A stretch of DNA of 61,930 bases, filler included, from Stramenopiles sp. TOSAG23-2 (Eukaryota): NCBI GenBank assembly GCA_900128395.1. It is 5 parts of 5 records of this genome, joined end to end, with 100 filler letters (N's around TTAATTAATTAA, not from the genome) between each part and the next. Parts side by side here need not be neighbours in the genome. Positions count along the whole stretch, not along the records: positions 24,885 to 37,186 come from LT649864.1; 4 more parts are not named here. The stretch is one strand, 5' to 3'. The position numbers and the translations under genes were made by a program. Under the pieces are notes generated by a model, which saw only the letters and a list, made by a program, of their open reading frames with translations, was not told where the DNA came from and made no database searches. Below are positions 10,767 to 61,408 of the stretch, in pieces; position 1 is the first letter of the stretch, and the number at the start of each line of letters is the position of its first letter.

Positions 10767-11011
10767 ATGTTTAATTAATTATACGAAGAATAGCAAGTTG
10801 CAATAAAATAAATAAGATATTATTTTTTCTATCGATAGTGTGTACATAAACTTTTTTTAACGCTACGCTCAACTCGCCATATGTAAAGTCATGTTTAATT
10901 AATTATACGAAGAATAGCAAGTTGCAATAAAATAAATAAGATATTATTTTTTCTATCGATAGTGTGTACATAAACTTTTTTTAACGCTACGCTCAACTCG
11001 CCATATGTAAA
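10767..11011. repeat. Exact 121-bp tandem duplication (10767-10887 / 10891-11011)
   Basis: Direct sequence comparison. Confidence 0.9.
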
Positions 11012-11026
11012 TCATATCAACTGTTA

Positions 11027-11962: not shown

Positions 11963-12095
11963 NNNNNNNNNNNNNNNNNNNNNNNNNNNNNNNNNNNNNN
12001 NNNNNNNNNNNNNNNNNNNNNNNNNNNNNNNNNNNNNNNNNNNNNNNNNNNNNNNNNNNNNNNNNNNNNNNNNNNNNNNNNNNNNNNNNNNNNNN
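11963..12095. other. Scaffold gap (N run without linker)
   Basis: Run of N. Confidence 0.95.
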
Positions 12096-12362: not shown

Positions 12363-12462
12363 NNNNNNNNNNNNNNNNNNNNNNNNNNNNNNNNNNNNNN
12401 NNNNNNTTAATTAATTAANNNNNNNNNNNNNNNNNNNNNNNNNNNNNNNNNNNNNNNNNNNN
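12363..12462. other. Artificial contig spacer 44N-TTAATTAATTAA-44N
   Basis: Six-frame stop linker inside an N run. Confidence 0.97.
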
Positions 12463-22124: not shown

Positions 22125-24023
22125 ATGAGTCGTCCACCGCCACCATTATTACCATTAAATAATATTAAATTGAAAAAAACAGGTGGTGCAAATAATAACA
22201 AACAAAAAAATAAGAAATCAAATAGGTCTATTTCTGATGTTGTGAAAGCAACTTTACGATATATGAAAAGTCGTCGTTTGGAATTGTTGGATTGCGATCA
22301 AAGCAAGGAAAATACGAAATGTGCGTTGGAAACGATAGAAAAACAGATCAATGAATGGAATACGTTAATAGAACATGATAAATTTAAGAGTATAGATAAC
22401 GATGAAAATAATATGAAAAAATTTGAAAAAGTTGTAGTAAAAGACCATTCATGGAATTTTGATCATGAAAAAGCATTTGCAATCCCAGTGAAAGAATTTT
22501 CAAATTTAGATTGGTCAACAATTACCAGTATAGGAAAAAGTGTGGAAGGCACGGAAGGTGTATTTTTTATTAAATTTCCAAATGAACGTGCCATAGTTGT
22601 AAAATCATCTACAACGTTAGGTGCAGAAGTATACGGTGCCATATTAGCAAAACGAATAGGCGTTGCAACGCCTGGTATACGTATTATCAATAGAAATTCC
22701 AATGAAGGTAGTAATATTGTTCGAAATTTAATTAAACAAGATGCACGAGTGGAACAATATTTATCAAAACCATTTTTTATTTTAATGGAATATATCAAAG
22801 GCATCGTATTAGGTGATGTTATTTTAAACGTGGAAAACAATAATAATAATAACAATAATAATAATGAAAATAAATTTATAATTCAAAAATTTGGTAATCC
22901 ACCAGAGTCACTCCATGATGTTGGAAAAAACAATTTATTACAATTTGGACGTATGATTGGTCTAGATTTTATTACAAATAATTTCGACCGTTTCCCTGTT
23001 GTATGGGATAATACAGGCAATCCAGGAAACGTCATGTTTTATGGAAATGTGGAGGAAGATGGTGTTGTAACAGAGTTAGCAAATCGTATAGTAGCGATTG
23101 ATAATATGACATCATGTATCTCGAAAACGAAATTTAAGAAAGAATATGATGCATATGCCATGAAAACATCAGAGGTATTATCTAAATTATTTAAAAATCC
23201 AATAGAAATTAACGAAGCATTTGCTCGTGTTCAATCTTTCTTAAAAAATGGAGTGCCAAATGGTGGATGGCCTGGACTTCAAATGGATATTGGCGAATCA
23301 GGCATTCGTTTAGTACAAGAAGGATTTTTGGAAAGTTTAGCTTCTGTTGGTGATATGGAACCGAATGAATTGTTTGCAATAAAAGATGCATTGGAAAACC
23401 TTTTCCTAAAAGACAATAATAATAACAATGATAATGATAATAATAATAATAATAGCAACTATAAAAATAATTTTTCTTATGGTTTGGAACGTGTAGATCC
23501 TGAATTTATCGTTGCCATTGCAACTACAATGCATGATGCTGTAGCATCAGATCTAAATGCACTTGGTAAATCATCACCAAATTTAAAAGAAAAAGAAATA
23601 CAAAGTTCATCCCCTGTTCAAAGTGATGATGGTAATAATAAAAAAATAAATGATAAAAGCCCTATAAATCGTATAGTGCAATTTGATAGTAGTAGTACTA
23701 ATGATAAAAATGTTGATGTTGTTGTAGCATCTGAGACAAAGTCAAATAACATAGATGTAAATAACCAACATGATGATGCGAAAACAACAAAAGAAATAAC
23801 ATTAAATGATCAAGATAGAAGGAATATGGATATAAATAGTATAAATACTATGTTAGGCTCATCTGATATTATATGGGGAAAACCATTTCGTCCAGCAATT
23901 GAATTATCTAATCAAATTACAACTTCTGTTATGTCACGATCAAGACGATTTGTCAGTGAAATTGAAAGAAGAGGTATACGACGTAAAAAAAATGAACAAA
24001 GTGGTGTTTGTATTGTGTCGTAA
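22125..24023 (+). CDS. Actin-fragmin kinase catalytic-domain protein with C-terminal CaaX
   Basis: GTEGVFF, GRMIGLDFITNNFDRFP, GNPGNVM, IVAIDN; ends RRKK...GVCIVS. Confidence 0.75.
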   Translation: MSRPPPPLLPLNNIKLKKTGGANNNKQKNKKSNRSISDVVKATLRYMKSRRLELLDCDQSKENTKCALETIEKQINEWNTLIEHDKFKSIDNDENNMKKFEKVVVKDHSWNFDHEKAFAIPVKEFSNLDWSTITSIGKSVEGTEGVFFIKFPNERAIVVKSSTTLGAEVYGAILAKRIGVATPGIRIINRNSNEGSNIVRNLIKQDARVEQYLSKPFFILMEYIKGIVLGDVILNVENNNNNNNNNNENKFIIQKFGNPPESLHDVGKNNLLQFGRMIGLDFITNNFDRFPVVWDNTGNPGNVMFYGNVEEDGVVTELANRIVAIDNMTSCISKTKFKKEYDAYAMKTSEVLSKLFKNPIEINEAFARVQSFLKNGVPNGGWPGLQMDIGESGIRLVQEGFLESLASVGDMEPNELFAIKDALENLFLKDNNNNNDNDNNNNNSNYKNNFSYGLERVDPEFIVAIATTMHDAVASDLNALGKSSPNLKEKEIQSSSPVQSDDGNNKKINDKSPINRIVQFDSSSTNDKNVDVVVASETKSNNIDVNNQHDDAKTTKEITLNDQDRRNMDINSINTMLGSSDIIWGKPFRPAIELSNQITTSVMSRSRRFVSEIERRGIRRKKNEQSGVCIVS

Positions 24024-24784: not shown

Positions 24785-24884
24785 NNNNNNNNNNNNNNNN
24801 NNNNNNNNNNNNNNNNNNNNNNNNNNNNTTAATTAATTAANNNNNNNNNNNNNNNNNNNNNNNNNNNNNNNNNNNNNNNNNNNN
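24785..24884. other. Artificial contig spacer
   Basis: 44N-TTAATTAATTAA-44N. Confidence 0.97.
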
Positions 24885-24889
24885 TTGCA

Positions 24890-25777
24890 ATGATAAATAT
24901 GTTTGCGAAAACATGTAAAAAATTTCTTGAATATGATCCGTTGCGTTGGTATTATTTTAGAGTTGTATTAGCAAAAAAATATGGAGTGAATTTTAATGAT
25001 AGTAGAATAACTTTCGCTGGAAAGAACATCAGTGATAAGGATTTACAAAATATAGCTGAAGCATTGAAAGGAAACAATACATTGACATACTTGGACCTAG
25101 ATAATAATAATATTATTGACATACAAATTATTGGTGAATTGTTAAAAACAAACAATACATTACAAATATTGGGCCTAGAAAATAATAATATTACTGATGT
25201 ACAAAGTATTGGTGATGCATTAAAAACAAACAATACATTACAAATATTGCGCCTAGAAAATAATAATATTACTGATGTACAAAGTATTGGTGAGGAACTA
25301 AAAACAAATGATACATTGACGTACTTGTACCTAGATAATAACAATATTATTGATGTACAAAGTATTGGTGAAGGATTACAAACAAACAATACATTAAAGA
25401 TATTGCGCCTATCTAATAATAATATTACTGACGTACAAACTATTACCGAAGGATTAAAAACAAACAATACATTAGCATCATTGAACCTATCTAATAATAA
25501 TATTATTGATGTACAAAATATTGGTGAAAGATTAAAAACAAACAACAGTTTAACGAGATTGGACCTAGATAATAATAATATTACTGATGATAGTGGAATA
25601 CAAACTATTATTGATGGATTAAAAACAAACAATACATTAAAGAGATTGCACCTATCTAATAATCAACTTAGTGATAATATGAAATCACAATTAAAAGCTA
25701 TGCAACAATATAAAAAAGATGGATCAAACGGGTATCAACAAGTGCAAGAGATGGTGATACAGACAGTATTATGGTAA
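24890..25777 (+). CDS. LRR protein, 26-aa RI/NLRC3-like repeats (5' end probably cut by contig edge)
   Basis: Eight LKTNNTLxxLxLxNNN units, mostly 78 bp apart, plus a C-cap shared with the gene at 61409. Confidence 0.85.
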   Translation: MINMFAKTCKKFLEYDPLRWYYFRVVLAKKYGVNFNDSRITFAGKNISDKDLQNIAEALKGNNTLTYLDLDNNNIIDIQIIGELLKTNNTLQILGLENNNITDVQSIGDALKTNNTLQILRLENNNITDVQSIGEELKTNDTLTYLYLDNNNIIDVQSIGEGLQTNNTLKILRLSNNNITDVQTITEGLKTNNTLASLNLSNNNIIDVQNIGERLKTNNSLTRLDLDNNNITDDSGIQTIIDGLKTNNTLKRLHLSNNQLSDNMKSQLKAMQQYKKDGSNGYQQVQEMVIQTVLW

Positions 25778-25911
25778 ATAAAATTAAGTTAATATATATA
25801 TATATACGTATATAATAATATTTTTTACTTCTCATGTTAAATAATATGCTCAATACTCAATCTGGAGAATAAATATTCTATCCTACTATTAATTTTTAAA
25901 ATTTCAGTTTT

Positions 25912-27045
25912 TTAAAAGTATATATGTTGGTATATATATGTTACTCCAGCACGACATTTACCTACTTCATAACCGACTGCATTTGAAACATTTACTGATA
26001 CCATTGTACGATTCAAATTGATTAGCACCAATCTATCTGCCAATATATTGTCCACCGTGGTTGACTCACATTCCAATATCACATTTGCGTCACATGAACC
26101 AGAATTGTTTGTATACCCTTTCACCAAATATATATGACAATGTCCAGATGAATTATGTTTCACACAAATGAATAACCCTTCTTTTAACTCTGAAAAATGT
26201 GATATTGGATTCATGCGGAATTTCTGCTGCAAACTTCTAATTAAATTTCTTGGTTTTTTTCGTAAGACCTCCCACCAATTAATAGTCGCATGATCCTTCC
26301 CCGCCACTGTTAGCCGATCGTTGGTTTCATCCAACAGGCTTACCATGTACTCTTCTGGTGGAGCACCAAGAATTTCCGACCACGAACTTTTTTGACCACA
26401 ACTTCCGCACTGTAATGAAAATGCCATTTTCTTCCATGTCACCTTTTCTTTTACCATAAGCAACCAAAACAACATAAACGATTTTACATCATCCCATTTT
26501 GCCTCTGGAGCATCACCTGCATTGTCTCCACATCTTCTCATCATATGCAAAACAAATCTCTTCTCGCTCCAACAGTTGTTGTAATCAATCACCCATTCAT
26601 CTACATTCTTATGCTTTTGTTGTTCCATCCCTTCCACATTATAACGCCAAAACTGTCGAAACTGATTACGTACAGCGGACCACCAGTTGCCTTTTAATTC
26701 AGTGTCATTTACAAATCTCACACATATATTATAGACAAATGCTATCTTATCCATTTTACCTTTGCCTACAGGAACTTCATTTGCATTTTCCAATATTTTG
26801 GACACTTTTTTAAAAAGTCCCATATCTGGCGCATATACTTCATTTCCATACATGCCCATACGGGCCTGAGTCATTTCTTTTTGACCAAACTCACTCGTTT
26901 TTATTTTCTCAAGGCCATGTAGCCAAATCAAACGATACACTACTTCCATTTGGGTAACCATTACAATCTTTTTAATACCATCAAATACCTTTTGTATTTC
27001 TTTTTCCATTTCCATTTCCATTTCTATTTCCATTTCTTCTGACAT
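25912..27045 (-). CDS. Orphan protein, 377 aa (CxxC; possible HUH motif GHCHIYLV)
   Basis: Intact ATG-to-stop ORF inside the candidate element; no family recognised. Confidence 0.7.
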   Translation of the reverse strand: MSEEMEIEMEMEMEKEIQKVFDGIKKIVMVTQMEVVYRLIWLHGLEKIKTSEFGQKEMTQARMGMYGNEVYAPDMGLFKKVSKILENANEVPVGKGKMDKIAFVYNICVRFVNDTELKGNWWSAVRNQFRQFWRYNVEGMEQQKHKNVDEWVIDYNNCWSEKRFVLHMMRRCGDNAGDAPEAKWDDVKSFMLFWLLMVKEKVTWKKMAFSLQCGSCGQKSSWSEILGAPPEEYMVSLLDETNDRLTVAGKDHATINWWEVLRKKPRNLIRSLQQKFRMNPISHFSELKEGLFICVKHNSSGHCHIYLVKGYTNNSGSCDANVILECESTTVDNILADRLVLINLNRTMVSVNVSNAVGYEVGKCRAGVTYIYQHIYF

Positions 27046-27236
27046 TTTCTTTCTTCTATAAATACAAATATATTGTTAATCCTTTCAATCTCTCTCTATA
27101 TATGTATATATACATATATACATAAGAAAAAAACTTCTACTACACTAATACTTATGTAAATACTTCCTTTTATATGTTTATGAAATATGTTAAAATTAGA
27201 AAACCCTGCATTATTATGTACTAAAACAATAGTTAT

Positions 27237-27675
27237 AACCAGTGTCCGCTATAACCTTAACTTCAATAAATTCTTGGACTTTGGTAATATTTCATTTTTT
27301 ACCAAAGTCTATTAATCCCATTAACAGGCCACACCATTGTCACCAGGATTTCCTTCAATTCATGAAGTGCTATCTGATGCTAAATGCCATCCACAGCCAG
27401 ACGTCAACTCCATACAGGGACACAGCATACAATACCTTTCCTACAGTTCTTACCTTATCCATTTATACTTAATTATACTCTTTCTAAATTTACAAAAATA
27501 TACACTACACACAACCAGTGTCCGCTATAACCTTAACTTCAATAAATTCTTGGACTTTGGTAATATTTAATTTTTTACCAAAGTCTATTAATCCCATTAA
27601 CAGGCCACACCATTGTACCTTATCCATTTATACTTAATTACTCTTTCTAAATTTACAAAAATATACACTACACAC
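27237..27675. repeat. Internal tandem repeat, 276-bp period; second unit lacks ~110 bp
   Basis: 27237-27340 ~ 27513-27616 and 27451-27512 ~ 27616-27675. Confidence 0.85.
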
Positions 27676-27724
27676 TACATACAGATAATGTAAAAACAAG
27701 TATATTAAAAAAAAGTTACTTTTT

Positions 27725-27982
27725 TTAATTCACATACTCCCAAAAGTCGACCAATCTTAACATTTCTAACATTGTCCATGTTGAAATATCATCAGCGTAC
27801 CTGACATCAGGGACCCACCCATTTCCAGTCCAAAGTAAGGGGCAAAGAGTAAATGTTCTGTTTACTACATTTGTAGAAAAATCAATTTCCATAATTTCGT
27901 AAATTTCACGATTTCCAGCATTATACGACATAATTATGTCATTTCTTCGAAAGCTACTTATGTTTTGAAAATTTTCATCCAT
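27725..27982 (-). CDS. Small orphan protein, 85 aa
   Basis: ATG preceded by an A-run as in other genes here; complex amino-acid composition. Confidence 0.55.
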   Translation of the reverse strand: MDENFQNISSFRRNDIIMSYNAGNREIYEIMEIDFSTNVVNRTFTLCPLLWTGNGWVPDVRYADDISTWTMLEMLRLVDFWEYVN

Positions 27983-28333
27983 TTTTTTTTTACTAAATGT
28001 TTTTTATTTCGAGTATTGTATATATTTGTAGTTATAAATAACTTTTTTAAAACTTTTCGATTTTTTTTGTAATGTATTATGTTTAGTTATACTGGTTTTA
28101 TATGTTCTATTGAAGTAGTTCTTTATTTTAATTTATTTGTATATATTTTATTATACTTCATTAATGAAATTATATAAAAGAAAATTATTATTATTATTAT
28201 CTGTATTTCTGGTATTGTACATTCCTATATAAAATTACTAGTAATAATAAACTCTCTCGCTGCTGCTAAATCCCTGCTGTTGATATACTATTTACAACAG
28301 CCTTTTTTCTGTCCTAGATCCCTTCCTTTTTCC

Positions 28334-28591
28334 AAAAAGTCTAGTGAATAGTGCACTACGTAGTATTGGTTATACAATATAGTCTAACTATTACTATAAT
28401 AGTATTATATTCTGAAAATTACCACAACTAGGAAATGTGCTATTATTACAGAGCTTTTCATAATGAATGGTTCTCATTACACGCCGACAAAAATATTATC
28501 TATTAACTAAATTTACAAACAAATTAAAATAAAAAGTCTAGTGAATAGTGCACTACGTAGTATTGGTTATACAATAGACTAACTATTACTA
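28334..28591. repeat. ~60-bp direct repeat with palindromes GTGCAC and ACTACGTAGT (28334-28396 / 28531-28591)
   Basis: Direct comparison. Confidence 0.8.
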
Positions 28592-29234
28592 GTATTGTAC
28601 TATACTAACAAACCTATTACCTATTTTATAACAACTACGTTGTATTGGCTTGAGGACACTAATGGTGTATTGCTGTTATTAAGCTACATTATGCTGTGTT
28701 CCTCCTTTCGAACAGAAATGGTGTGTTCCTGTTATTAAGCTATATACAGGCACACACCATGTACCATTTTTTCTCCACAACTATTAGCTGAATCAGCCGC
28801 CTGCCAAGACATACATTGTTAACATTTTTCAACACTATTGTTAATATACTTACAAGCTTCTTCCCTATATATCAACTTCCATTTTACCTCAAATAGATAA
28901 AATATAAAGTACATTTTTTATACTCTAACATTATCCTTCAAAGCCTACACTTTTTCGTTCAAATTTTGATACTGAGAATACATTTTACCAGTAAAATTTT
29001 ATGCCCCTTAAGTCATTTTCACCATTTAACGACATTGTAATTTCTTGGGCAGGGGTCCTTGCCTCACAGGCGTCTGTAACTTTATTTTATATTATCATTA
29101 TTTTAATAATTTGATAATATATATGAAAAATGAATTACTAAAGGAATAAAGTTGTTCACGAATGAAGGATAACAGATCCATCTCCGCAAACATTTACTCA
29201 AGTTTTAGATGAAAAGGTAACGAAGAAAGTAAAT

Positions 29235-30837
29235 ATGAATGAAAAACTTGCCAAATTGTTTTTGAAAGCATCTGAAAAAGAAGCTAAAAGCGATAAAATT
29301 AAAGAAGCATATTATAAAGTTCATTTAGCAATTTCAAAACTTCCGTATGTCATTGGTAATGCTGGTGCGCCGACAGGGAAAGAAATGGGTGAACATGGTA
29401 ACAAACATAAAGTACCTAGTATTGGAAAAGTATCTGGTTCGTATATTGATGAATATCTACGTACGGGTACGATAAAACATTTTAAGATCAATTATGGAAT
29501 GACATTTAATGAAGATAGTGAGGAGGAGAATAATAATAGTTCCAATAAAACAACACAAAATCTTGATCTTGGAGCAGCAGCTATTGATGGGGGTGTAACA
29601 AATGATGGATTACCTCTAATGCAACAGCATAAAGGCGAACAACTTAAACAAAGGTCCAAACAAAGGAAAAAAGCAGAACGTTTAGCTAAACATCAACTTG
29701 AAACAAAGGTCCAAACAAAGGAAAAAAGCAGAACGTTTAGCTAAACATCAACTTGATTCTGATAAAATAAGACAATTATCAGAAGAATATGCTACTTCAT
29801 TTGGCATTTCAAGAGAAAAAGCAACAGAAATTCTAAATGCAAATCCAATACTTCTACAAAATGGACAACTACAACAGCTTCGTCAAATGGGTCCTTTCTT
29901 AGAAATGTTTCGAAAAACTATTGCTGCACCACAGATTACAAAATGTGCCGCCTGCCATAAGCTACCAACCACACCATTGAATATGCCTTGTAATCATCGG
30001 TTGCGTTGTTATTATTTTAGAGTTGTATTAGCAAAAAAATATGGAGTGAATTTTAATGATAGTAGAATAACTTTCGCTGGAAAGAACATCAGTGATAAGG
30101 ATTTACAAAATATAGCTGAAGCATTGAAAGGAAACAATACATTGACATACTTGGACCTAGATAATAATAATATTATTGACATACAAATTATTGGTGAATT
30201 GTTAAAAACAAACAATACATTACAAATATTGGGCCTAGAAAATAATAATATTACTGATGTACAAAGTATTGGTGATGCATTAAAAACAAACAATACATTA
30301 CAAATATTGCGCCTAGAAAATAATAATATTACTGATGTACAAAGTATTGGTGAGGAACTAAAAACAAATGATACATTGACGTACTTGTACCTAGATAATA
30401 ACAATATTATTGATGTACAAAGTATTGGTGAAGGATTACAAACAAACAATACATTAAAGATATTGCGCCTATCTAATAATAATATTACTGACGTACAAAC
30501 TATTACCGAAGGATTAAAAACAAACAATACATTAGCATCATTGAACCTATCTAATAATAATATTATTGATGTACAAAATATTGGTGAAAGATTAAAAACA
30601 AACAACAGTTTAACGAGATTGGACCTAGATAATAATAATATTACTGATGATAGTGGAATACAAACTATTATTGATGGATTAAAAACAAACAATACATTAA
30701 AGAGATTGCACCTATCTAATAATCAACTTAGTGATAATATGAAATCACAATTAAAAGCTATGCAACAATATAAAAAAGATGGATCAAACGGGTATCAACA
30801 AGTGCAAGAGATGGTGATACAGACAGTATTATGGTAA
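29235..30837 (+). CDS. Chimeric HhH (Pol beta N-term-like) + partial RING + LRR gene, frameshifted by a 55-bp duplication (515 aa if the duplication is removed)
   Basis: 29646-29700 is repeated at 29701-29755; deleting one copy fuses ORFs 29235 and 29698 in frame. CAACHK...PCNHRLRC precedes the LRRs. Confidence 0.65.
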
Positions 30838-30971
30838 ATAAAATTAAGTTAATATATATATATATACGTATATAATAATATTTTTTACTTCTCATGTTAA
30901 ATAATATGCTCAATACTCAATCTGGAGAATAAATATTCTATCCTACTATTAATTTTTAAAATTTCAGTTTT

Positions 30972-32105
30972 TTAAAAGTATATATGTTGGTATATATATG
31001 TTACTCCAGCACGACATTTACCTACTTCATAACCGACTGCATTTGAAACATTTACTGATACCATTGTACGATTCAAATTGATTAGCACCAATCTATCTGC
31101 CAATATATTGTCCACCGTGGTTGACTCACATTCCAATATCACATTTGCGTCACATGAACCAGAATTGTTTGTATACCCTTTCACCAAATATATATGACAA
31201 TGTCCAGATGAATTATGTTTCACACAAATGAATAACCCTTCTTTTAACTCTGAAAAATGTGATATTGGATTCATGCGGAATTTCTGCTGCAAACTTCTAA
31301 TTAAATTTCTTGGTTTTTTTCGTAAGACCTCCCACCAATTAATAGTCGCATGATCCTTCCCCGCCACTGTTAGCCGATCGTTGGTTTCATCCAACAGGCT
31401 TACCATGTACTCTTCTGGTGGAGCACCAAGAATTTCCGACCACGAACTTTTTTGACCACAACTTCCGCACTGTAATGAAAATGCCATTTTCTTCCATGTC
31501 ACCTTTTCTTTTACCATAAGCAACCAAAACAACATAAACGATTTTACATCATCCCATTTTGCCTCTGGAGCATCACCTGCATTGTCTCCACATCTTCTCA
31601 TCATATGCAAAACAAATCTCTTCTCGCTCCAACAGTTGTTGTAATCAATCACCCATTCATCTACATTCTTATGCTTTTGTTGTTCCATCCCTTCCACATT
31701 ATAACGCCAAAACTGTCGAAACTGATTACGTACAGCGGACCACCAGTTGCCTTTTAATTCAGTGTCATTTACAAATCTCACACATATATTATAGACAAAT
31801 GCTATCTTATCCATTTTACCTTTGCCTACAGGAACTTCATTTGCATTTTCCAATATTTTGGACACTTTTTTAAAAAGTCCCATATCTGGCGCATATACTT
31901 CATTTCCATACATGCCCATACGGGCCTGAGTCATTTCTTTTTGACCAAACTCACTCGTTTTTATTTTCTCAAGGCCATGTAGCCAAATCAAACGATACAC
32001 TACTTCCATTTGGGTAACCATTACAATCTTTTTAATACCATCAAATACCTTTTGTATTTCTTTTTCCATTTCCATTTCCATTTCTATTTCCATTTCTTCT
32101 GACAT
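30972..32105 (-). CDS. Orphan protein, 377 aa, copy 2
   Basis: Identical translation to 25912-27045. Confidence 0.7.
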   Translation of the reverse strand: MSEEMEIEMEMEMEKEIQKVFDGIKKIVMVTQMEVVYRLIWLHGLEKIKTSEFGQKEMTQARMGMYGNEVYAPDMGLFKKVSKILENANEVPVGKGKMDKIAFVYNICVRFVNDTELKGNWWSAVRNQFRQFWRYNVEGMEQQKHKNVDEWVIDYNNCWSEKRFVLHMMRRCGDNAGDAPEAKWDDVKSFMLFWLLMVKEKVTWKKMAFSLQCGSCGQKSSWSEILGAPPEEYMVSLLDETNDRLTVAGKDHATINWWEVLRKKPRNLIRSLQQKFRMNPISHFSELKEGLFICVKHNSSGHCHIYLVKGYTNNSGSCDANVILECESTTVDNILADRLVLINLNRTMVSVNVSNAVGYEVGKCRAGVTYIYQHIYF

Positions 32106-32784
32106 TTTCTTTCTTCTATAAATACAAATATATTGTTAATCCTTTCAATCTCTCTCTATATATGTATATATACATATATACATAAGAAAAAAACTTCTAC
32201 TACACTAATACTTATGTAAATACTTCCTTTTATATGTTTATGAAATATGTTAAAATTAGAAAACCCTGCATTATTATGTACTAAAACAATAGTTATAACC
32301 AGTGTCCGCTATAACCTTAACTTCAATAAATTCTTGGACTTTGGTAATATTTCATTTTTTACCAAAGTCTATTAATCCCATTAACAGGCCACACCATTGT
32401 CACCAGGATTTCCTTCAATTCATGAAGTGCTATCTGATGCTAAATGCCATCCACAGCCAGACGTCAACTCCATACAGGGACACAGCATACAATACCTTTC
32501 CTACAGTTCTTACCTTATCCATTTATACTTAATTATACTCTTTCTAAATTTACAAAAATATACACTACACACAACCAGTGTCCGCTATAACCTTAACTTC
32601 AATAAATTCTTGGACTTTGGTAATATTTAATTTTTTACCAAAGTCTATTAATCCCATTAACAGGCCACACCATTGTACCTTATCCATTTATACTTAATTA
32701 CTCTTTCTAAATTTACAAAAATATACACTACACACTACATACAGATAATGTAAAAACAAGTATATTAAAAAAAAGTTACTTTTT

Positions 32785-33042
32785 TTAATTCACATACTCC
32801 CAAAAGTCGACCAATCTTAACATTTCTAACATTGTCCATGTTGAAATATCATCAGCGTACCTGACATCAGGGACCCACCCATTTCCAGTCCAAAGTAAGG
32901 GGCAAAGAGTAAATGTTCTGTTTACTACATTTGTAGAAAAATCAATTTCCATAATTTCGTAAATTTCACGATTTCCAGCATTATACGACATAATTATGTC
33001 ATTTCTTCGAAAGCTACTTATGTTTTGAAAATTTTCATCCAT
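32785..33042 (-). CDS. Small orphan protein, 85 aa, copy 2
   Basis: Identical translation to 27725-27982. Confidence 0.55.
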   Translation of the reverse strand: MDENFQNISSFRRNDIIMSYNAGNREIYEIMEIDFSTNVVNRTFTLCPLLWTGNGWVPDVRYADDISTWTMLEMLRLVDFWEYVN

Positions 33043-34294
33043 TTTTTTTTTACTAAATGTTTTTTATTTCGAGTATTGTATATATTTGTAGTTATAAATA
33101 ACTTTTTTAAAACTTTTCGATTTTTTTTGTAATGTATTATGTTTAGTTATACTGGTTTTATATGTTCTATTGAAGTAGTTCTTTATTTTAATTTATTTGT
33201 ATATATTTTATTATACTTCATTAATGAAATTATATAAAAGAAAATTATTATTATTATTATCTGTATTTCTGGTATTGTACATTCCTATATAAAATTACTA
33301 GTAATAATAAACTCTCTCGCTGCTGCTAAATCCCTGCTGTTGATATACTATTTACAACAGCCTTTTTTCTGTCCTAGATCCCTTCCTTTTTCCAAAAAGT
33401 CTAGTGAATAGTGCACTACGTAGTATTGGTTATACAATATAGTCTAACTATTACTATAATAGTATTATATTCTGAAAATTACCACAACTAGGAAATGTGC
33501 TATTATTACAGAGCTTTTCATAATGAATGGTTCTCATTACACGCCGACAAAAATATTATCTATTAACTAAATTTACAAACAAATTAAAATAAAAAGTCTA
33601 GTGAATAGTGCACTACGTAGTATTGGTTATACAATAGACTAACTATTACTAGTATTGTACTATACTAACAAACCTATTACCTATTTTATAACAACTACGT
33701 TGTATTGGCTTGAGGACACTAATGGTGTATTGCTGTTATTAAGCTACATTATGCTGTGTTCCTCCTTTCGAACAGAAATGGTGTGTTCCTGTTATTAAGC
33801 TATATACAGGCACACACCATGTACCATTTTTTCTCCACAACTATTAGCTGAATCAGCCGCCTGCCAAGACATACATTGTTAACATTTTTCAACACTATTG
33901 TTAATATACTTACAAGCTTCTTCCCTATATATCAACTTCCATTTTACCTCAAATAGATAAAATATAAAGTACATTTTTTATACTCTAACATTATCCTTCA
34001 AAGCCTACACTTTTTCGTTCAAATTTTGATACTGAGAATACATTTTACCAGTAAAATTTTATGCCCCTTAAGTCATTTTCACCATTTAACGACATTGTAA
34101 TTTCTTGGGCAGGGGTCCTTGCCTCACAGGCGTCTGTAACTTTATTTTATATTATCATTATTTTAATAATTTGATAATATATATGAAAAATGAATTACTA
34201 AAGGAATAAAGTTGTTCACGAATGAAGGATAACAGATCCATCTCCGCAAACATTTACTCAAGTTTTAGATGAAAAGGTAACGAAGAAAGTAAAT

Positions 34295-35731
34295 ATGAAT
34301 GAAAAACTTGCCAAATTGTTTTTGAAAGCATCTGAAAAAGAAGCTAAAAGCGATAAAATTAAAGAAGCATATTATAAAGTTCATTTAGCAATTTCAAAAC
34401 TTCCGTATGTCATTGGTAATGCTGGTGCGCCGACAGGGAAAGAAATGGGTGAACATGGTAACAAACATAAAGTACCTAGTATTGGAAAAGTATCTGGTTC
34501 GTATATTGATGAATATCTACGTACGGGTACGATAAAACATTTTAAGATCAATTATGGAATGACATTTAATGAAGATAGTGAGGAGGAGAAGAATAATAGT
34601 TCCAATAAAACAACACAAAATCTTGATCTTGGAGCAGCAGCTATTGATGGGGGTGTAACAAATGATGGATTACCTCTAATGCAACAGCATAAAGGCGAAC
34701 AACTTAAACAAAGGTCCAAACAAAGGAAAAAAGCAGAACGTTTAGCTAAACATCAACTTGATTTTGATAAAATGTTTATAGCATCGGGTTTAGTTGTTGA
34801 TTTAGAAACGACGATTCCCAGAAAAGGTTCGTATAATTTCGTCTTTGAAATTGGTGGAATTACAACAAATTATGATGTTAGTAACCAAAAAGAAACAACA
34901 TTTAATTGCATGGTAGATTTTGATTTAGAACAAAAAGAAGTCACATCATATAAAGATATTGAAAATAGACTAGAAGAACTTGGACAAGATGCAAAATTTA
35001 CGTTAAAATTTTGGAAAGAACATGTATTAATACCAAAATTCCAATGGTATAAACGCGATATATTTCCAGGAAAATTGGTTGAATCACGCAAAAATTGGAT
35101 GAAAGTGATTAAAAAATATGGGAATGGTAATGAAGATGATATTCCTACAACAAATGAGATGATGACTACCATTAAAAATGAATTTGGCGCATATTTCTTT
35201 TTTCCACAAAAATATGCGCTGCAGACATTTTTGAATTATAATTTAATGCTAAGCAAAACAATGCAAACAGATAAACAGATGTATTGGTATGCACATAATG
35301 GTAATAAATTTGATTTTTCCGTATTGGAAAAGGCATGTTGGAGATTAAATATTGGTTTAAATGTGAAAAGAATAGTTGTATTGAGAAAAGGCAATGATGA
35401 AGAAGATAAGGCTTTGTTTCAAAATTTTGGCATTACTGCTAATCGTAATCCTATAGATGGTCTTCAAATTATAGGATTTGATACTTTGCAATTTGCTAGA
35501 TTAAAAATTAAAAAAGGATGGAAAACAAAAAATAAACGTGCAGGTCATAGTCAAGAATCTTTATATGCAAGATATACGTCAACAACTCCAGAAATGGATA
35601 GTAAACCAGATGATGGAAGAGCTTTAGAAGTTTATGATGCTCATAATGCTGTTGATGATTGTATAGCTTTATTGAAACTAATGAAAGGTGTTGATGAGTA
35701 TTTAGAGACAAAGAAGAAGGAAATCATATAA
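34295..35731 (+). CDS. Pol-beta-type N-terminal HhH domain fused to DEDDh (DnaQ/TREX-like) 3'-5' exonuclease
   Basis: AYYKVHLAISKLP...VPSIGKVSGSYIDEYLRTG aligns to the Pol beta 8-kDa domain. ExoI VVDLETT, ExoII AHNGNKFDF, FDTL, ExoIII AHNAVDDC. Confidence 0.8.
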   Translation: MNEKLAKLFLKASEKEAKSDKIKEAYYKVHLAISKLPYVIGNAGAPTGKEMGEHGNKHKVPSIGKVSGSYIDEYLRTGTIKHFKINYGMTFNEDSEEEKNNSSNKTTQNLDLGAAAIDGGVTNDGLPLMQQHKGEQLKQRSKQRKKAERLAKHQLDFDKMFIASGLVVDLETTIPRKGSYNFVFEIGGITTNYDVSNQKETTFNCMVDFDLEQKEVTSYKDIENRLEELGQDAKFTLKFWKEHVLIPKFQWYKRDIFPGKLVESRKNWMKVIKKYGNGNEDDIPTTNEMMTTIKNEFGAYFFFPQKYALQTFLNYNLMLSKTMQTDKQMYWYAHNGNKFDFSVLEKACWRLNIGLNVKRIVVLRKGNDEEDKALFQNFGITANRNPIDGLQIIGFDTLQFARLKIKKGWKTKNKRAGHSQESLYARYTSTTPEMDSKPDDGRALEVYDAHNAVDDCIALLKLMKGVDEYLETKKKEII

Positions 35732-37186: not shown

Positions 37187-37286
37187 NNNNNNNNNNNNNN
37201 NNNNNNNNNNNNNNNNNNNNNNNNNNNNNNTTAATTAATTAANNNNNNNNNNNNNNNNNNNNNNNNNNNNNNNNNNNNNNNNNNNN
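37187..37286. other. Artificial contig spacer
   Basis: 44N-TTAATTAATTAA-44N. Confidence 0.97.
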
Positions 37287-49560: not shown

Positions 49561-49660
49561 NNNNNNNNNNNNNNNNNNNNNNNNNNNNNNNNNNNNNNNN
49601 NNNNTTAATTAATTAANNNNNNNNNNNNNNNNNNNNNNNNNNNNNNNNNNNNNNNNNNNN
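49561..49660. other. Artificial contig spacer
   Basis: 44N-TTAATTAATTAA-44N. Confidence 0.97.
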
Positions 49661-49803: not shown

Positions 49804-50297
49804 TAAAGAAAAATCAATGTTGACCAAGAAAATAATAAATTCATTTCAACAAGATATATATATATATATATACACGGACGTATTAACAACAAATCAAATA
49901 CAACACAAGAACATGTCATATGGACCATTAAAAAATATCAAAGTGTTGGAATTGGCAGGCTTAGCACCGGCACCAATGGCAGGAATGATCTTATCAGATT
50001 TTGGCGCAAACGTGATACGAATTGATCGTGCAGTAAATGGATATGCTCAAGGTGCTGGACCAGATGATTTAGCAAGAGGGAAAAAAAGTATTGCATTAAA
50101 TTTAAAATCAACAGAATAAAGAAAAATCAATGTTGACCAAGAAAATAATAAATTCATTTCAACAAGATATAAATATACTTTATAAAGAAAAATCAATGTT
50201 GACCAAGAAAATAATAAATTCATTTCAACAAGATATATATATATATATATACACGGACGTATTAACAACAAATCAAATACAACACAAGAACATGTCA
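49804..50297 (+). repeat. Three truncated copies of the AMACR 5' region, all starting at the same base (49804, 50117, 50183; full copy from 50298)
   Basis: Each begins TAAAGAAAAATCAATGTTGACC. Confidence 0.9.
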
Positions 50298-50406
50298 TAA
50301 AGAAAAATCAATGTTGACCAAGAAAATAATAAATTCATTTCAACAAGATATATATATATATATATACACGGACGTATTAACAACAAATCAAATACAACAC
50401 AAGAAC

Positions 50407-51645
50407 ATGTCATATGGACCATTAAAAAATATCAAAGTGTTGGAATTGGCAGGCTTAGCACCGGCACCAATGGCAGGAATGATCTTATCAGATTTTGGCG
50501 CAAACGTGATACGAATTGATCGTGCAGTAAATGGATATGCTCAAGGTGCTGGACCAGATGATTTAGCAAGAGGGAAAAAAAGTATTGCATTAAATTTAAA
50601 ATCAACAGAAGGACAAAATGCATTGAAAAAATTAGTGAGTGTTAGTGATGTAATTATAGAACCATTTCGACCTGGTGTCATGGAACGTTTAGGTTTAGGT
50701 CCAGAAGTTTTAATGAAATTAAACCCAAAATTAATTTATGCTCGTATGACCGGATATGGTCAAGGCGGTGTACCTATTTGGGGAGATCGTGCAGGTCATG
50801 ATGCAAATTATTTAGCATTAAGTGGTATGTTATCGATGCTACGTCAAAATAATAATAATATGGATCATTTAGGTGATGCCTCTAGACCATTTGGCCCATT
50901 GAATTTGCTTGGTGACTTCGCTGGTGGTGGTTTAATGTGTGCACTCGGTATTTTACTTGCAGTTATTGATCGACATAGCTCCGGTGTTGGACAAATTGTC
51001 GATGCAGCAATGGTTGATGGTGCTGCATATCTCGGAACATCATTGTTTAAATCGGTCAATGCTGGTAAATTAGGTTATAATAATGAAAGAATTGGTGGAA
51101 ATGGCTTTAATCAAGGAGCGCATTGGTATAATACATATAAAACAAAGGATGATAAATATGTTGCCGTTTGTGCAGTGGAACCACAATTTTACAAAGCATT
51201 TATTGAAGGTATTGGATTAAATTTAAATGAGTTACCAAGACAAATGGATCGTTCACAATGGCAAAATATGAAGAAAATGTGTCAAGATATATTTATCACA
51301 AAAACACGAAGTGAATGGGAAATACAATTCGATGGAGTTGATGCATGTGTTACACCTGTCTTGGATGTGATAGAAGCACAAAATTTCCCACATTCTGTTG
51401 AACGACGTACATTTTTACCAAGTTTAAAAGATCCAAATACACTTGAACCAACGCCTGCACCACATTTAAGCAAATCGCATAATGATTTCCAATTAAAACC
51501 TAGTCCCAAACCTGGTCAACATACGAGAGAAGTTTTAGAACAATATATGGATAAAAAAGAAGTGGATGAAATGTTTACATCTGGTTTTGCAAGTGATAAA
51601 TTAAGAGAAAGAAAGAAAAAGGTGAAAAAAGTTAGCAAATTGTAA
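50407..51645 (+). CDS. AMACR: Alpha-methylacyl-CoA racemase (CoA-transferase family III), peroxisomal
   Basis: [44 protein letters not shown]-terminal SKL. Confidence 0.92.
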   Translation: MSYGPLKNIKVLELAGLAPAPMAGMILSDFGANVIRIDRAVNGYAQGAGPDDLARGKKSIALNLKSTEGQNALKKLVSVSDVIIEPFRPGVMERLGLGPEVLMKLNPKLIYARMTGYGQGGVPIWGDRAGHDANYLALSGMLSMLRQNNNNMDHLGDASRPFGPLNLLGDFAGGGLMCALGILLAVIDRHSSGVGQIVDAAMVDGAAYLGTSLFKSVNAGKLGYNNERIGGNGFNQGAHWYNTYKTKDDKYVAVCAVEPQFYKAFIEGIGLNLNELPRQMDRSQWQNMKKMCQDIFITKTRSEWEIQFDGVDACVTPVLDVIEAQNFPHSVERRTFLPSLKDPNTLEPTPAPHLSKSHNDFQLKPSPKPGQHTREVLEQYMDKKEVDEMFTSGFASDKLRERKKKVKKVSKL

Positions 51646-57952: not shown

Positions 57953-58508
57953 CTGCTGTAATAATTATTCCAAAAATATCAATCAATATCAATTGCGGCG
58001 GGGAATCGGAGGCTGGTGGATGACTTTGTAATATAATATTATGTATATATATATATGTGAACTATATGTAAGCAACAGTATATATAAAATGAGGTTGGTA
58101 TATATTATATTTTCAATACGGTATATATGTAGCATTTTTTATAGTGTGTGTTTGTTTTTTTGCCTGTGTGGTGCTGTTGTGTATATGAATTAATTTAAGG
58201 GATTTATTATATGAGATATTATGATATTTTCTAACATTACTAATATTTATGCTTGTATTATCGGGTCCTTTCTAGATGATTTCCGATTTTTTAGCACGTT
58301 TTTTATAATTTTTTGAAGAATAAATTCAACAATAAAATAGATTGAAAATTATAATACAAATGTATTTTTTGTCAAATAGAATTGTCTTCATGCTTTTTTG
58401 TGTAATAATATGATCAAACAAAAAAAAAGAAACGAAATATCAACACCTGTGCTTTTTCTCGTATAGTTTAAGCGTGTATATGAATATATAAACGATTCTG
58501 ATAGTGAA

Positions 58509-58768
58509 ATATATATATATATATATAAATTTAAAATAATAATAATGGCAACGAAAAATGATGTAAATAACCAGGAAAACGTAACGGTTTCTAAGGATGG
58601 AAATAGTAAAGAACAAGTAGTAGATCAAAAACAACAAGATATATATATATATATATAAATTTAAAATAATAATAATGGCAACGAAAAATGATGTAAATAA
58701 CCAGGAAAACGTAACGGTTTCTAAGGATGGAAATAGTAAAGAACAAGTAGTAGATCAAAAACAACAAG
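58509..58768. repeat. Exact 130-bp tandem duplication over the start of the DOT1-like gene
   Basis: ATG context appears at both 58545 and 58675. Confidence 0.9.
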
Positions 58769-59676
58769 AAGAGAAAATAAAAGATGTAGTAGCTGATGAT
58801 AGTAACGAGGATGAAAATGATAGTAATGAAAAACCTAAACATCACCATATTCAACATGGACATCGTAACAAAGAATTACACAGATTATATACAACCTTGT
58901 TAGAGGATTATCCAGTTAATTTAGGCAAAGCAATATCAAAAAAACAACGTGAACGTGAACATTTAAAAGACCCAACTTTAGTTTATGGTGAAATTAAATA
59001 TAATTTTATGGCATTAATGTTTCGTGTAATGAAGGATGATTATGACGGTTTGCAAAAAGCCGGTGGTGTATTTTATGATTTAGGCTCAGGTACTGGTAAA
59101 CCTGTTTTTGCTGCTGCTATTTTGCATACATTTGAAAGATGCGTTGGCGTTGAAAAATTATCACAATTATATACAGCTTCATTGGAAATAACCGATCACT
59201 GGAGGAAATTAACTGATAGCGTAGATGATGATATAATGAGTGCAGAGCAAAAACGTTGTATGATTGAATTTATAAATGATGATATAAAAAATCCAGAATT
59301 TTCGATGTCGGATGCTACAGTTGGATTTGCAAATTCGACTTGCTATGATGAAGAGTTGATGATTCATATTGCATCCAAAGCTGATGAAATGGTTGCTGGA
59401 TCATTTTTTATTACTGTCACAAAACGTCTTCCATCTTTACAATGGGATTTATTAGAAATGGAACGTTATAAAATGTCATGGGGTGAAGCAAATGTTTTCC
59501 TACATCGTAAAAAAGATGATGATTGGCAAGAGCAACAATTGGAAGCTGAGGCAAGGCAAAAAGAGGAAGAAGAGGAGGAAGAACGAGCTAGGAAAGAAGC
59601 GGAACAAAGTAGTGGAGATGAAGAAGAAGTTGAAAATTTATTAGTAGGTGGGGAAGATGGTAGTGGTTTGCTTTAA
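58675..59676 (+). CDS. DOT1-like SAM-dependent methyltransferase
   Basis: LVYGEI, FYDLGSGTGKPV, GVEK, FANSTCYD, MSWG. Confidence 0.8.
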   Translation: MATKNDVNNQENVTVSKDGNSKEQVVDQKQQEEKIKDVVADDSNEDENDSNEKPKHHHIQHGHRNKELHRLYTTLLEDYPVNLGKAISKKQREREHLKDPTLVYGEIKYNFMALMFRVMKDDYDGLQKAGGVFYDLGSGTGKPVFAAAILHTFERCVGVEKLSQLYTASLEITDHWRKLTDSVDDDIMSAEQKRCMIEFINDDIKNPEFSMSDATVGFANSTCYDEELMIHIASKADEMVAGSFFITVTKRLPSLQWDLLEMERYKMSWGEANVFLHRKKDDDWQEQQLEAEARQKEEEEEEERARKEAEQSSGDEEEVENLLVGGEDGSGLL

Positions 59677-59905
59677 TCAAAGGGGAAGTAAAAGATAATA
59701 AATACGAGTTCGTATTATACCACGAAAATATACGAGACGTATGCATAGTATTTTTAAAATATGAGAAGAAGTTGAAAATTTATTAGTAGGTGGGGAAGAT
59801 GGTAGTGGTTTGCTTTAATCAAAGGGGAAGTAAAAGATAATAAATACGAGTTCGTATTATACCACGAAAATATACGAGACGTATGCATAGTATTTTTAAA
59901 ATATG
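59622..59905. repeat. Exact 142-bp tandem duplication
   Basis: 59622-59763 / 59764-59905. Confidence 0.9.
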
Positions 59906-59983
59906 AATTATTATTAATGTTACGCGCGCCATTATTATTTTTTACTCTCAAACATTTTCTAGTCTACACGGCATCAGCCTCTT

Positions 59984-60932
59984 TTACTCAAACATAAATG
60001 ATGCAACTTTAACACCCATTAATACATTATCGTAAATCATTTTACCATTTGCATTTGGTCCAGCAGATGCAGCAGCTACATGCAATGGAATCAAATGTTC
60101 TTCACGTGGATGGCAAAATCTAGCTTCTGGACCATCTACCCATTAATACATTATCGTAAATCATTTTACCATTTGCATTTGGTCCAGCAGATGCAGCAGC
60201 TACATGCAATGGAATCAAATGTTCTTCACGTGGATGGCAAAATCTAGCTTCTGGACCATCTTCCCAAGTTAGCAATGTATTGATCATATTTGTTGTATCA
60301 TTTGTTTCTATATTCTTTTTTAAATAATTATGAAATGCAACAGATTTTTCCATTGCATTACTTCCACCACCAAAAGCACGCATATTATGAAAAGACATAC
60401 CAGATCCAATGATTAAAACATCGTTATTATCTTCACGAACTTTGGATAATATTTTTCCTAAATTTACATGATCTGTTGGATTTAAGCCTCCTATTAATGA
60501 AATTTGTATTACTGGTATATCTGCTTCTGGGTACATTAATTTTAGTGGTATAAAAACACCATGATCAAATCCTCTACTAACTAATTCCACATTTTCAAAC
60601 ATCGATGATGATTTAAATAAATTATAAATATTTGAAGATAGCTCTAATGCACCATTTACTTTATATGTCAAATGCGGTGCATATGCCTGTGGTGGGAAAC
60701 CATAATAATCATATAATAACTCACCATTTTCATGCCCGGTTGATATTTGAATTGCACTATTAGATGTAGATTCCCAATGTGCAGATATAACTATAATTTG
60801 TTTCGGTCTTCTTGGAATATATGTTTTTGGCAATTCAATTAAAAATTTAGATAATTCACCATGTGTTTTCATATCTAATATTGGCATTGGGCCACCACCA
60901 TGTGCTAAAAAGAAGGTTGGTAATGAGGACAT
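59984..60932 (-). CDS. LigB-family extradiol dioxygenase (4,5-DOPA dioxygenase-like); 3' end disturbed by a 124-bp duplication
   Basis: AHGGGPMP, ISAHWE, YDYYGFP, RGFDHGVFIPL, GSGMSFHN, HPREEHLIPL. Removing one copy of 60014-60137/60138-60261 restores ...DNVLMGVKVASFMFE* (274 aa). Alternative ATG at 61082 adds a hydrophobic leader. Confidence 0.88.
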
Positions 60933-61408
60933 TTTATTTATTTTTATACCGTTAATAAAAGGTTGGAACGTAGAAAATATTAATAATAATAATGACAAAT
61001 AAATTATGATAATATTTAAAATATTTGTTGACAATAATAATAATACAATGAATGGTGTACGACAATAATTTTTTCGAATCATATACACTTTATTCTATTC
61101 TTAACAAAGCGTATTTTTTTCTTCTTGTATGATTTCTTTCAAACAGCGATGTACTATCAAGAACAAGAATATATATATATGGCATTTGCACATTTTGCTT
61201 TTGCACTTCTTTTCATAGCAGTTGCCATATGTATGTATAAAAAGACTTTTAATTATTTTTAAGAATATGTAAAAAACAGTGATATTCAATGCTATTTTTA
61301 TATTGTTGTATTCTAATTACCAGTTTAAGTATAATTTATGATATTTTGATAGAACTTTCAGTGATTTCCATTTTCACATTTTCACACATATATATTTCTT
61401 CCTTACCA

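Follow-up and report, generated by a model that had tools for sequence, protein, structure and literature searches.

We analysed a window of 61,930 nucleotides (nt) from the uncultured protist Stramenopiles sp. TOSAG23-2 (GenBank assembly GCA_900128395.1) and concentrated on a leucine-rich repeat (LRR) gene at its positions 24890-25777. The gene probably belongs to a large, lineage-specific family of intracellular LRR proteins, of the type found in ribonuclease inhibitor (RI) and NOD-like receptors (NLRs), that forms a germline recognition repertoire in which the C-terminal module is the ligand-binding sensor. This module consists of an N-cap, 2-8 or more units of 26 amino acids (aa), one 29-aa unit and a C-cap.

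The open reading frame (ORF) and repeat array that the first-pass annotation of this DNA had noted stand, but the contig start at 24885 removes the 5' end, and a second copy lies in the window through the 24926-29701 / 29987-34761 duplication (Table 1). Full-length relatives extend ~50-90 residues further N-terminally, adding a Thr/Arg-rich start and the first half of a helical domain. Tandem Repeats Finder reports a 78-bp period over 25040-25589 with 7.1 copies and 81% matches. The DNA strings picked out earlier as near-invariant do recur: TTAAAAACAAACAATACATT has 5 matches within the gene and 15 across the window at no more than one mismatch, versus 0 in 100 shuffles, and the 35-mer has 4 and 10, respectively, at no more than three mismatches, versus 0 expected from shuffles. 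The hypervariable codons of the 26-aa units are positions 2, 3, 5, 7 and, in part, 8, and the strings listed beforehand for this segment (TYLDLD, QILGLE, QILRLE, TYLYLD, KILRLS, ASLNLS, TRLDLD, and KRLHLS) read exactly so in the translation. A 151-nt contig from an RNA library (X16) matches 25441-25589 exactly, and 413 contigs of metatranscriptome run X15 fall on the window, most of them over its LRR parts; such matches make transcription likely but support it weakly, as RNA libraries may contain DNA and the uncovered parts of the window carry no meaning.

We measured the variation among units in both protein and DNA. Of the 8000 candidates scored in a protein search, 200 matched at E ≤ 0.001; among the 120 matches listed, the DVQ[ST]I framework is present in 72, the GSNGY C-cap in 60, and, by regular expression, the N-terminal domain of the window gene in 39. 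A regular expression requiring L1, L4, L6, and a following unit yielded 109 distinct units from 72 of the 120. Entropy in these units reaches 2.0-3.3 bits at positions 2, 3, 5, and 7 (the x positions) and stays below 0.7 bits at 19 of the 22 others, the exceptions being positions 8 (1.7), 20 (1.4), and 25 (0.98). For DNA, we took every in-frame 26-codon stretch with eight anchor residues from the window and from 44 of 53 related metagenome loci, giving 112 units (104 distinct) and leaving out units that fail an anchor, one of the window's own included. Over the 104 units, the proportion of nonsynonymous differences per site by the Nei-Gojobori method (pN) is 0.558 at the x positions and 0.061 in the framework; the synonymous counterpart (pS) is 0.272 at the x positions, a value raised artificially by multi-step paths, and 0.112 in the framework. 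Diversity at the first two nucleotides of the codon is 0.612 for x codons and 0.059 for framework codons, and at the third nucleotide 0.286 and 0.098. The third base of the four x codons is largely kept (NNG in 85, NNA in 80, NNC in 87, and NNT in 95 of 104 units), with bases 1 and 2 almost random. Variation at the x positions is thus about five-fold above the neutral yardstick as raw proportions, pN of 0.558 versus a framework pS of 0.112, and more once corrected.

The same contrast appears in 26 distinct C-terminal segments of 65 codons, which are positionally homologous: positions 2, 3, 5, and 7 of their two units have a pN of 0.37-0.70, three further variable codons (23, 49, and 52) have a pN of 0.34-0.36, and the remaining codons have a pS of 0.047 and a pN of 0.051. 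Thr, Lys, Tyr, Asp, Arg, Ser, Glu, Asn, and His are common among the x residues. Mean pairwise identity among the 104 units is 74.8% in amino acids, 85.6% once the four x positions are set aside, and 85.4% in nucleotides. Entropy, pN and pS, nucleotide diversity, and the C-terminal segments all bear out the original proposal of a fixed framework with variation on the β-strand x positions, and the excess over neutral expectation that it had called for is present.

The framework is conserved down to its codons. Codon heterozygosity there is 0.068 versus 0.511 expected from 9136 codons of other genes in the window, and even rare codons are fixed (CTA for Leu6 in 93 of 101 units, background 8%; AAC for Asn24 in 97 of 104, background 19%). 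Pairs of loci compared by synonymous divergence (dS) have old N-terminal regions joined to almost identical LRR frameworks: 1.78 in the N-terminal part and 0.03 in the framework for L005-L037, 0.55 and 0.03 for L005-L008, and 0.63 and 0 for L037-L050, the last from only 2 × 1 units. This combination points to homogenisation or to recent exchange of the module. Framework codons compared within a gene, or between loci of one accession prefix, show a synonymous mismatch of 0.065 in either case, and those compared between prefixes show 0.072. For the class to which the window gene belongs, comparison with three relatives gives an N-terminal dS of 0.13-0.18 (46 codons), close to the framework dS, a sequence pattern that indicates a young expansion.

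No amino acid unit is common to two loci among the 104, and 100 of the 104 combinations of x residues (x-tuples) are distinct, so the diversity does not come from a shuffled set of cassettes. The family had been called recombination-diversified; taken in the sense of the variable lymphocyte receptors (VLRs), this part of the proposal is not supported by the unit-sharing test between loci. Instead, the x codons look like the product of point substitutions at nucleotides 1 and 2 over a conserved nucleotide 3, and recombination or gene conversion appears, from the sequence patterns, to keep the scaffold uniform and to alter unit number without creating x diversity. Adenine mutagenesis of the kind associated with diversity-generating retroelements was considered and rejected: the third-position A of the CTA (93 of 101) and TTA (93 of 104) codons between the variable ones is kept, which tells against such a process because any change there would be synonymous or conservative. 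No reverse transcriptase was found among the window ORFs scanned.

One locus could be compared between two assemblies. The paralogue at the end of the window had been placed on another contig, which is correct, the window being five joined contigs; its gene, on the minus strand and truncated where the contig stops, contains the strings reported for it (KWLYLS, THLHLK, twice, THLYLS, and YWLSLD). L023, one of the metagenome loci, and window positions 58220-61776 are this one locus. The adjoining piece of flank is 99.9% identical over 1121 bp with 0 mismatches, and the piece that reaches the gene is 94.5% identical, the final 667 bp of its alignment being free of mismatches; the LRR coding part has 33 mismatches in 358 bp. 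In the 3' flank, divergence fades gradually across the nearest 400-600 bp. Across 86 aligned codons, we counted 25.5 nonsynonymous (Nd) and 2.5 synonymous (Sd) differences (pN 0.123, pS 0.05), and the amino acid changes fall at x positions and at tail and C-cap positions that are also variable family-wide. The difference fits hyperpolymorphic alleles or a conversion tract, and a cell-level process is possible.

The family is large, as had been supposed, and extends well beyond a few members. Our scan of metagenome contigs gave 53 related loci, distributed over accession prefixes with 27, 9, 6, 5, and 3 loci and three prefixes with 1 each. Because L023, of the 27-locus prefix, is the window's own paralogue locus, most of the loci appear to come from the same or a very close organism, and presumed orthologues in two prefixes share 96.7% identity over 2244 bp. 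Each full-length relative consists of one ORF without interruption, which fits the earlier description of the family as intronless, and six loci (L001-L004, L006, and L012) have complete ORFs from Met to stop within genomic contigs. By regular-expression count, 12 complete ORFs have 3-9 units per gene. In six other loci (L005, L008, L026, L029, L031, and L036), the C-cap (MKSQL...GSNGYQQV) occupies a short ORF separate from the LRR array, which indicates frameshifts or premature stops, through either pseudogenes or mis-assembly of repeats. L013:2218-4263 (+) is a single ORF with two complete modules of N-cap, LRR, and C-cap in tandem behind a membrane-like N terminus and a different RI-type LRR stretch, and it looks like a fusion of two modules. 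A search of a viral collection matched only one locus, L054:1547-2224 (+), an RI-type LRR in a giant-virus metagenome-assembled genome; at 34% identity to the window protein, we set it aside as a distant relative outside the family. A full-text literature search, which covered papers of 2024-2026 by title and abstract opening, returned no description of the family.

Profile searches place the repeats firmly among LRRs. Pfam matches on copy 2 of the gene include LRR_4 (1.1e-15; 57.8 bits, cut-off 27), LRR_1 (7.8e-15), LRR_6 (3e-10; 39.8 bits, cut-off 23.4), and LRR_8, all above cut-off, and the precomputed Pfam assignment is PF27087 (LRR_TMOD-LMOD). An AlphaFold2 model of a 226-aa full-length member, built on a 38-row alignment, has a mean confidence (pLDDT) of 85.6 and a pTM of 0.78; it contains five LRR strands at unit positions 3-5 alternating with helices, and a last strand in the variable tail. 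Matches to Protein Data Bank (PDB) profiles include 4r5d (6e-24), the NLRP1 LRR (1e-13), and RI (7.5e-13), and Foldseek matches include NOD2, NLRP1, NLRP3, RI, and TMOD at E values of 1e-7 to 1e-5; the nearest solved structures are thus the LRRs of RI, NOD2, and NLRP1, and tropomodulin-leiomodin and axonemal LRR proteins are also among the neighbors in sequence or fold. To judge by its sequence, the window gene encodes an RI-like or NLR-type LRR protein, a short variant of a class with 28-29 aa per unit; its own units have 26 aa (one has 29) and equal an RI-type unit minus two residues after ITD. The first-pass annotation had also noted 26 residues instead of the RI-like 28, and alignment to RI-type LRRs of solved structures places the two-residue gap after ITD. 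General LRR geometry and the predicted strand positions suggest that x3, x5, and x7 point toward the concave surface, and positions 2, 3, 5, and 7 would all sit on the concave-face β-strand or next to it. The caps comprise a helical C-cap free of Cys (NQLSDNMKSQL..QYK.DGSNGYQQV) and a Thr/Arg-rich N terminus, in which no signal peptide is seen by eye.

The N-terminal domain of the window's class is modelled as helical, though with little confidence: its pLDDT is 46-74 within the full-length model and 69.7 when the domain is modelled by itself. For this domain of 85 aa, Pfam at E ≤ 10 gave only TINF2_N (0.07), a PDB profile search gave a best E of 0.65 with no F-box protein among 8 matches, and a wide fold search with the weak model gave a best Z of 4.2. 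A protein atlas returned a best score of 0.86, below its 0.9 line and thus a lead only. The idea of an F-box (FBXL) protein, prompted by the ITD signature and an LP..IL..I motif, gained no support from Pfam, PDB profiles, the Foldseek rows shown, or the wide fold search with the weak model, and atlas features score only 0.77-0.78 against F-box/LRR clusters.

Relatives attach the same module to a wide range of other domains. Pfam scans of 23 proteins, looking ahead of the N-cap, LRR, and (where present) C-cap, revealed TIR_2 with a ResIII/DEAD-type NTPase (L005, L008), CHAT with an SLFN-g3-type helicase (L050), an NTPase only (L037), MLKL_N with a kinase (L045) or alone (L041), a kinase with TIR (L043) or alone (L042, P0047), a caspase (Peptidase_C14; P0035), an XK-related domain (L018), and ankyrin repeats (L004, P0039); L019, whose 5' end is cut, has TIR and LRR only. 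In L020:3-2258 (+), on a eukaryotic contig, the module follows a SidE-type phosphodiesterase (SidE_PDE, E 6e-21), a domain known from a bacterial effector family. Further classes, distinguished by sequence, begin with MGC... or contain membrane-like segments, and AAA_22 is among the NTPase matches in the long relatives. The 23 proteins contain no NACHT, NB-ARC, or Roc/COR domain. An order of effector, NTPase, and repeats is present, in form, in L005 and L008 (TIR_2) and L050 (CHAT), with helicase-type NTPases, but not in the window gene, whose Pfam matches are to LRR only, with no NTPase. TIR, CHAT, caspase, MLKL_N, and kinase-type partners are signaling or cell-death domains of immune systems elsewhere, and the position of the module behind them lends circumstantial support to an immune role, which by analogy the family may have.

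A repertoire of this kind could operate as follows. Ligands, themselves variable and of pathogen, prey, symbiont, or non-self origin, would bind the concave face, with specificity set by ~4-5 residues in each of 3-9 units, and binding would be relayed to the attached signaling or cell-death effector or, in the window's small class, to a partner of the small helical N-terminal domain. Point substitutions favored by strong diversifying selection, together with changes in unit number, would yield new specificities. Gene conversion, unequal crossing-over, or recent module exchange between genes would keep the scaffold uniform, and recombination between near-identical scaffolds would move the module among genes.

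Several points weigh against this reading. We infer recognition from domain association and evolutionary pattern. The window's class bears only an N-terminal domain of no assigned fold, and NLR mechanisms are not simply transferable because the NTPases of the relatives are helicase-type rather than STAND. The uniform framework mismatch is unlike a simple clock and could reflect constraint at the nucleotide level. The eight-anchor selection sets pN to 0 at those positions, leaving pS unaffected, and the pairwise Nei-Gojobori counts over units are non-independent and take no account of recombination or site models. Finally, the assemblies are fragmented, with many arrays at contig ends and the six split C-caps, so that some arrays may be mis-assembled.

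Like the fungal het/NWD genes, the repertoire might serve allorecognition, mating, discrimination of self from non-self, or intragenomic conflict between strains in place of pathogen or prey recognition. We consider this unlikely, although it is the strongest of the alternatives. The evolutionary pattern matches that described for the fungal NWD/HET genes (PMC4986451), in which the repeats are conserved, selection acts on about four sites in each, and loci exchange with one another; the marked difference between L023 and the window within identical flanks is as expected for hyperpolymorphic alleles; and partners such as MLKL_N, caspase, CHAT, and TIR are of the cell-death type. The present data do not separate such a role from pathogen sensing. 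A programmed or somatic process that diversifies the x codons, by targeted hypermutation or templated patching, gives different receptors to cells of one lineage, and so resembles VLRs in function, is improbable. It would account for variation limited to nucleotides 1 and 2 of four codons beside fixed synonymous sites, for the different x residues of L023 and the window between identical flanks, and for a framework mismatch that is independent of relatedness. The genes, however, are complete and uninterrupted in genomic contigs, the loci share no library of units or x-tuples, the kept third-position A excludes adenine-specific mutagenesis, no mutator gene was seen beside the loci examined, and the divergence of the L023 locus decays gradually into its flank, as for old alleles or a conversion tract. 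Our comparison of independent runs used contigs, not reads, and is blind to variation from cell to cell. In its broadest form, with targeted and possibly somatic or strain-level diversification of x codons on a nucleotide-conserved scaffold and one sensor module serving many outputs, we likewise give this idea little credence.

Neutral variation in an old family of ordinary interaction scaffolds, with exposed residues simply unconstrained, is more doubtful still. In any LRR, constraint is looser at the x positions than in the framework, but drift would saturate synonymous sites, and here the framework pS is 0.11 and the third nucleotide of x codons is largely kept while the first two are near saturation; within the single L023 locus, moreover, 25.5 nonsynonymous differences stand against 2.5 synonymous ones. 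Least credible of all is that chimeric joins and collapsed repeats, introduced when amplified single-cell or metagenome DNA was assembled, created the apparent diversity. Across 104 units drawn from eight prefixes and the window, errors of that kind would not keep falling on nucleotides 1 and 2 of the same four codons, and the same pattern recurs in 120 independently predicted database proteins. The window does contain a 4.8-kb near-perfect duplication with a chimeric junction, a 55-bp duplication missing from one independent contig, exact two-copy repeats of 115-142 bp, and, together with the related loci, many arrays at contig ends, all of which would be expected if assembly had gone wrong.

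For a recognition repertoire of this design, the closest analogue appears to be the repeats of high internal conservation in fungal NLRs, with the Ectocarpus LRR-ROCO proteins next and VLRs sharing the design principle only. As described by Dyrka et al. 2014 (PMC4986451), fungal NLRs (Podospora NWD/HET-E/D/R with WD40 repeats; ankyrin (ANK) or tetratricopeptide (TPR) repeats elsewhere) have highly conserved repeats with about four positively selected binding-surface positions in each, varying repeat number, repeats that evolve in concert or exchange within and between loci, and many N-terminal effectors; LRR motifs are given there as absent. The present family resembles them in having repeats ~85% identical outside the x positions, a few positions apparently under selection, varying unit number, and many N-terminal partners. 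It differs in its repeat type, an LRR, in the lack of an NTPase in the window gene and the presence of ResIII, DEAD, or SLFN-g3 types in relatives, in the absence of detected unit sharing between loci (0 of 104), and in its host, a marine protist.

Ectocarpus LRR-ROCO and NB-ARC-TPR proteins are candidate receptors with a proposed immune role (Zambounis et al. 2012, PMC3341825; see also PMC11378527), and the former paper describes the LRR-ROCO genes as having selected sites on the concave LRR face, high gene turnover, and one exon per repeat, with diversity arising from exon shuffling. The window's host is probably related to the stramenopiles, as one gene tree suggests, and concave-face variation is likewise shared; in contrast, the arrays here are uninterrupted ORFs of 26-aa units, and Roc/COR domains are missing from the proteins scanned. 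In VLRs, somatic assembly adds flanking cassettes to a germline gene that is incomplete; the proteins are secreted or membrane-bound and have Cys-rich LRRNT and LRRCT caps and 24-aa units. Like them, the family has an invariant LRR scaffold with varying unit number and hypervariable residues on the concave face, among which Tyr, Asp, Asn, Ser, Arg, His, and Trp are prominent; unlike them, it has complete germline ORFs, no shared cassettes (0 of 104), no Cys caps, RI-type repeats, and intracellular partners. The LRRs of RI, NOD2, NLRP1, and tropomodulin-leiomodin differ in turn in having units of 28-29 aa, not 26, and far lower conservation between units.

Table 1. LRR genes, duplicated segments, and contig boundaries in the window (positions count along the whole stretch)
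Feature	Position	Strand	Basis and remarks
LRR gene, copy 1	24890-25777	+	295-aa ORF; 5' end lost at contig start 24885
Remnant (39 aa) of conserved N-terminal domain, MINMFAKTCKKFLEYDPLRWYYFRVVLAKKYGVNF...	24890-25006	+	Comparison with relatives
N-cap LRR unit, ITFAGKNISDKDLQNIAEALKGNNT	25007-25081	+	Translation, alignment to relatives
Six canonical 26-aa (78-bp) LRR units	25082-25549	+	Repeat finding and translation
29-aa penultimate unit, LTRLDLDNNNITDDSGIQTIIDGLKTNNT	25550-25636	+	Kept across the family
C-cap unit and tail, LKRLHLSNNQLSDNMKSQLKAMQQYKKDGSNGYQQVQEMVIQTVLW, then stop	25637-25777	+	Tail residues variable too
Direct duplication, 4776 bp, arm 1	24926-29701		6 differences between arms, 5 in the first 24 bp
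Direct duplication, 4776 bp, arm 2	29987-34761
Fragment like N terminus of RING protein P0077	29698-29986	+	Ends after CNHR; in-frame upstream of copy 2
LRR gene, copy 2	29987-30837	+	Identical to copy 1 from 30010
Paralogous LRR gene, 173 aa present	61409-61930	-	5' end lost at contig end; same locus as L023
Gap of 133 N within first contig	11963-12095
Linker between contigs	12363-12462
Linker between contigs	24785-24884
Linker between contigs	37187-37286
Linker between contigs	49561-49660

The second copy of the gene lies directly behind a RING-like fragment, and this chimeric RING-LRR junction and the duplication are either a genuine rearrangement or a chimera of amplification or assembly; no contig among those listed from independent runs bridges the junction at 29986/29987. 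Where arm 1 ends, a tandem duplication of 55 bp (29640-29756) interrupts an ORF that arm 2 keeps intact (34295-35731), and one contig from an independent run skips it. The broken ORF upstream of copy 2, 29235-29744 (+), has the first ~160 residues of the intact one in common. The latter, of 478 aa (+), has a weak match to HHH_8 (E 4.6e-4, below cut-off) and none in Pfam at 1e-5, and it contains a VVDLETT motif that we take to be exonuclease-like. Directly downstream of the LRR gene and convergent with it is a 377-aa ORF at 25912-27045 (-), present again at 30972-32105 (-), which has an acidic Glu-Met repeat at its N terminus and no Pfam match. Two-copy tandem repeats of 115-142 bp with 99-100% matches lie at 10767-11015, 50182-50414, 58509-58769, 59622-59906, and 60014-60266. 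The L023 alignments to 58639-59759 and 59761-60142 are split and overlapping, suggesting that the other assembly lacks at least one of these repeats, which are probably assembly artefacts.

The five contigs of the window, each of ~12.3 kb and 30-33% G+C, are joined by linkers of the form N44-TTAATTAATTAA-N44 and are not readable across the joins. The long, unbroken ORFs they carry specify common eukaryotic products (class I fumarase, cyclin, actin-fragmin kinase, PGAP1, RCC1, and DOT1); the kinase is a 632-aa protein at 22125-24023 (+) that combines an actin-fragmin kinase catalytic domain (E 3e-30) with Asn-rich tracts. Relatives of the fumarase reach 87-93% identity, and its best named matches only ~75%. 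In a quick, single-gene tree search, it falls in one clade with a pelagophyte stramenopile (SH-aLRT 99). Sequencing runs that contain window sequence carry marine or seawater labels. The source organism, as far as these sequences indicate, is an AT-rich, uncultured marine protist, possibly related to stramenopiles.

If the family is a recognition repertoire, a free-living unicellular marine eukaryote would possess a large intracellular set of receptors built like a designed repeat-protein library, in which a single LRR scaffold is frozen and each unit leaves four positions free, and tied to immunity and cell-death domains of animals, plants, fungi, and bacteria. The principle of conserved repeats with a selected surface, known up to now from the WD40, ANK, and TPR repeats of fungal NLRs, would extend to LRRs and to a protist, and NLR-like logic would be found to run on helicase-type NTPases or to dispense with an NTPase altogether. 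Were targeted diversification to prove true after all, a unicellular marine protist would be making receptor diversity functionally analogous to VLRs or antibodies, with TIR, CHAT, caspase, MLKL-like, kinase, scramblase-like, and helicase-NTPase outputs. As a natural scaffold with mapped variable positions, the module may also be of use in binder engineering. For the biology of these organisms, a germline repertoire of this kind would offer a system for asking how protists recognise viruses, bacteria, and conspecifics.

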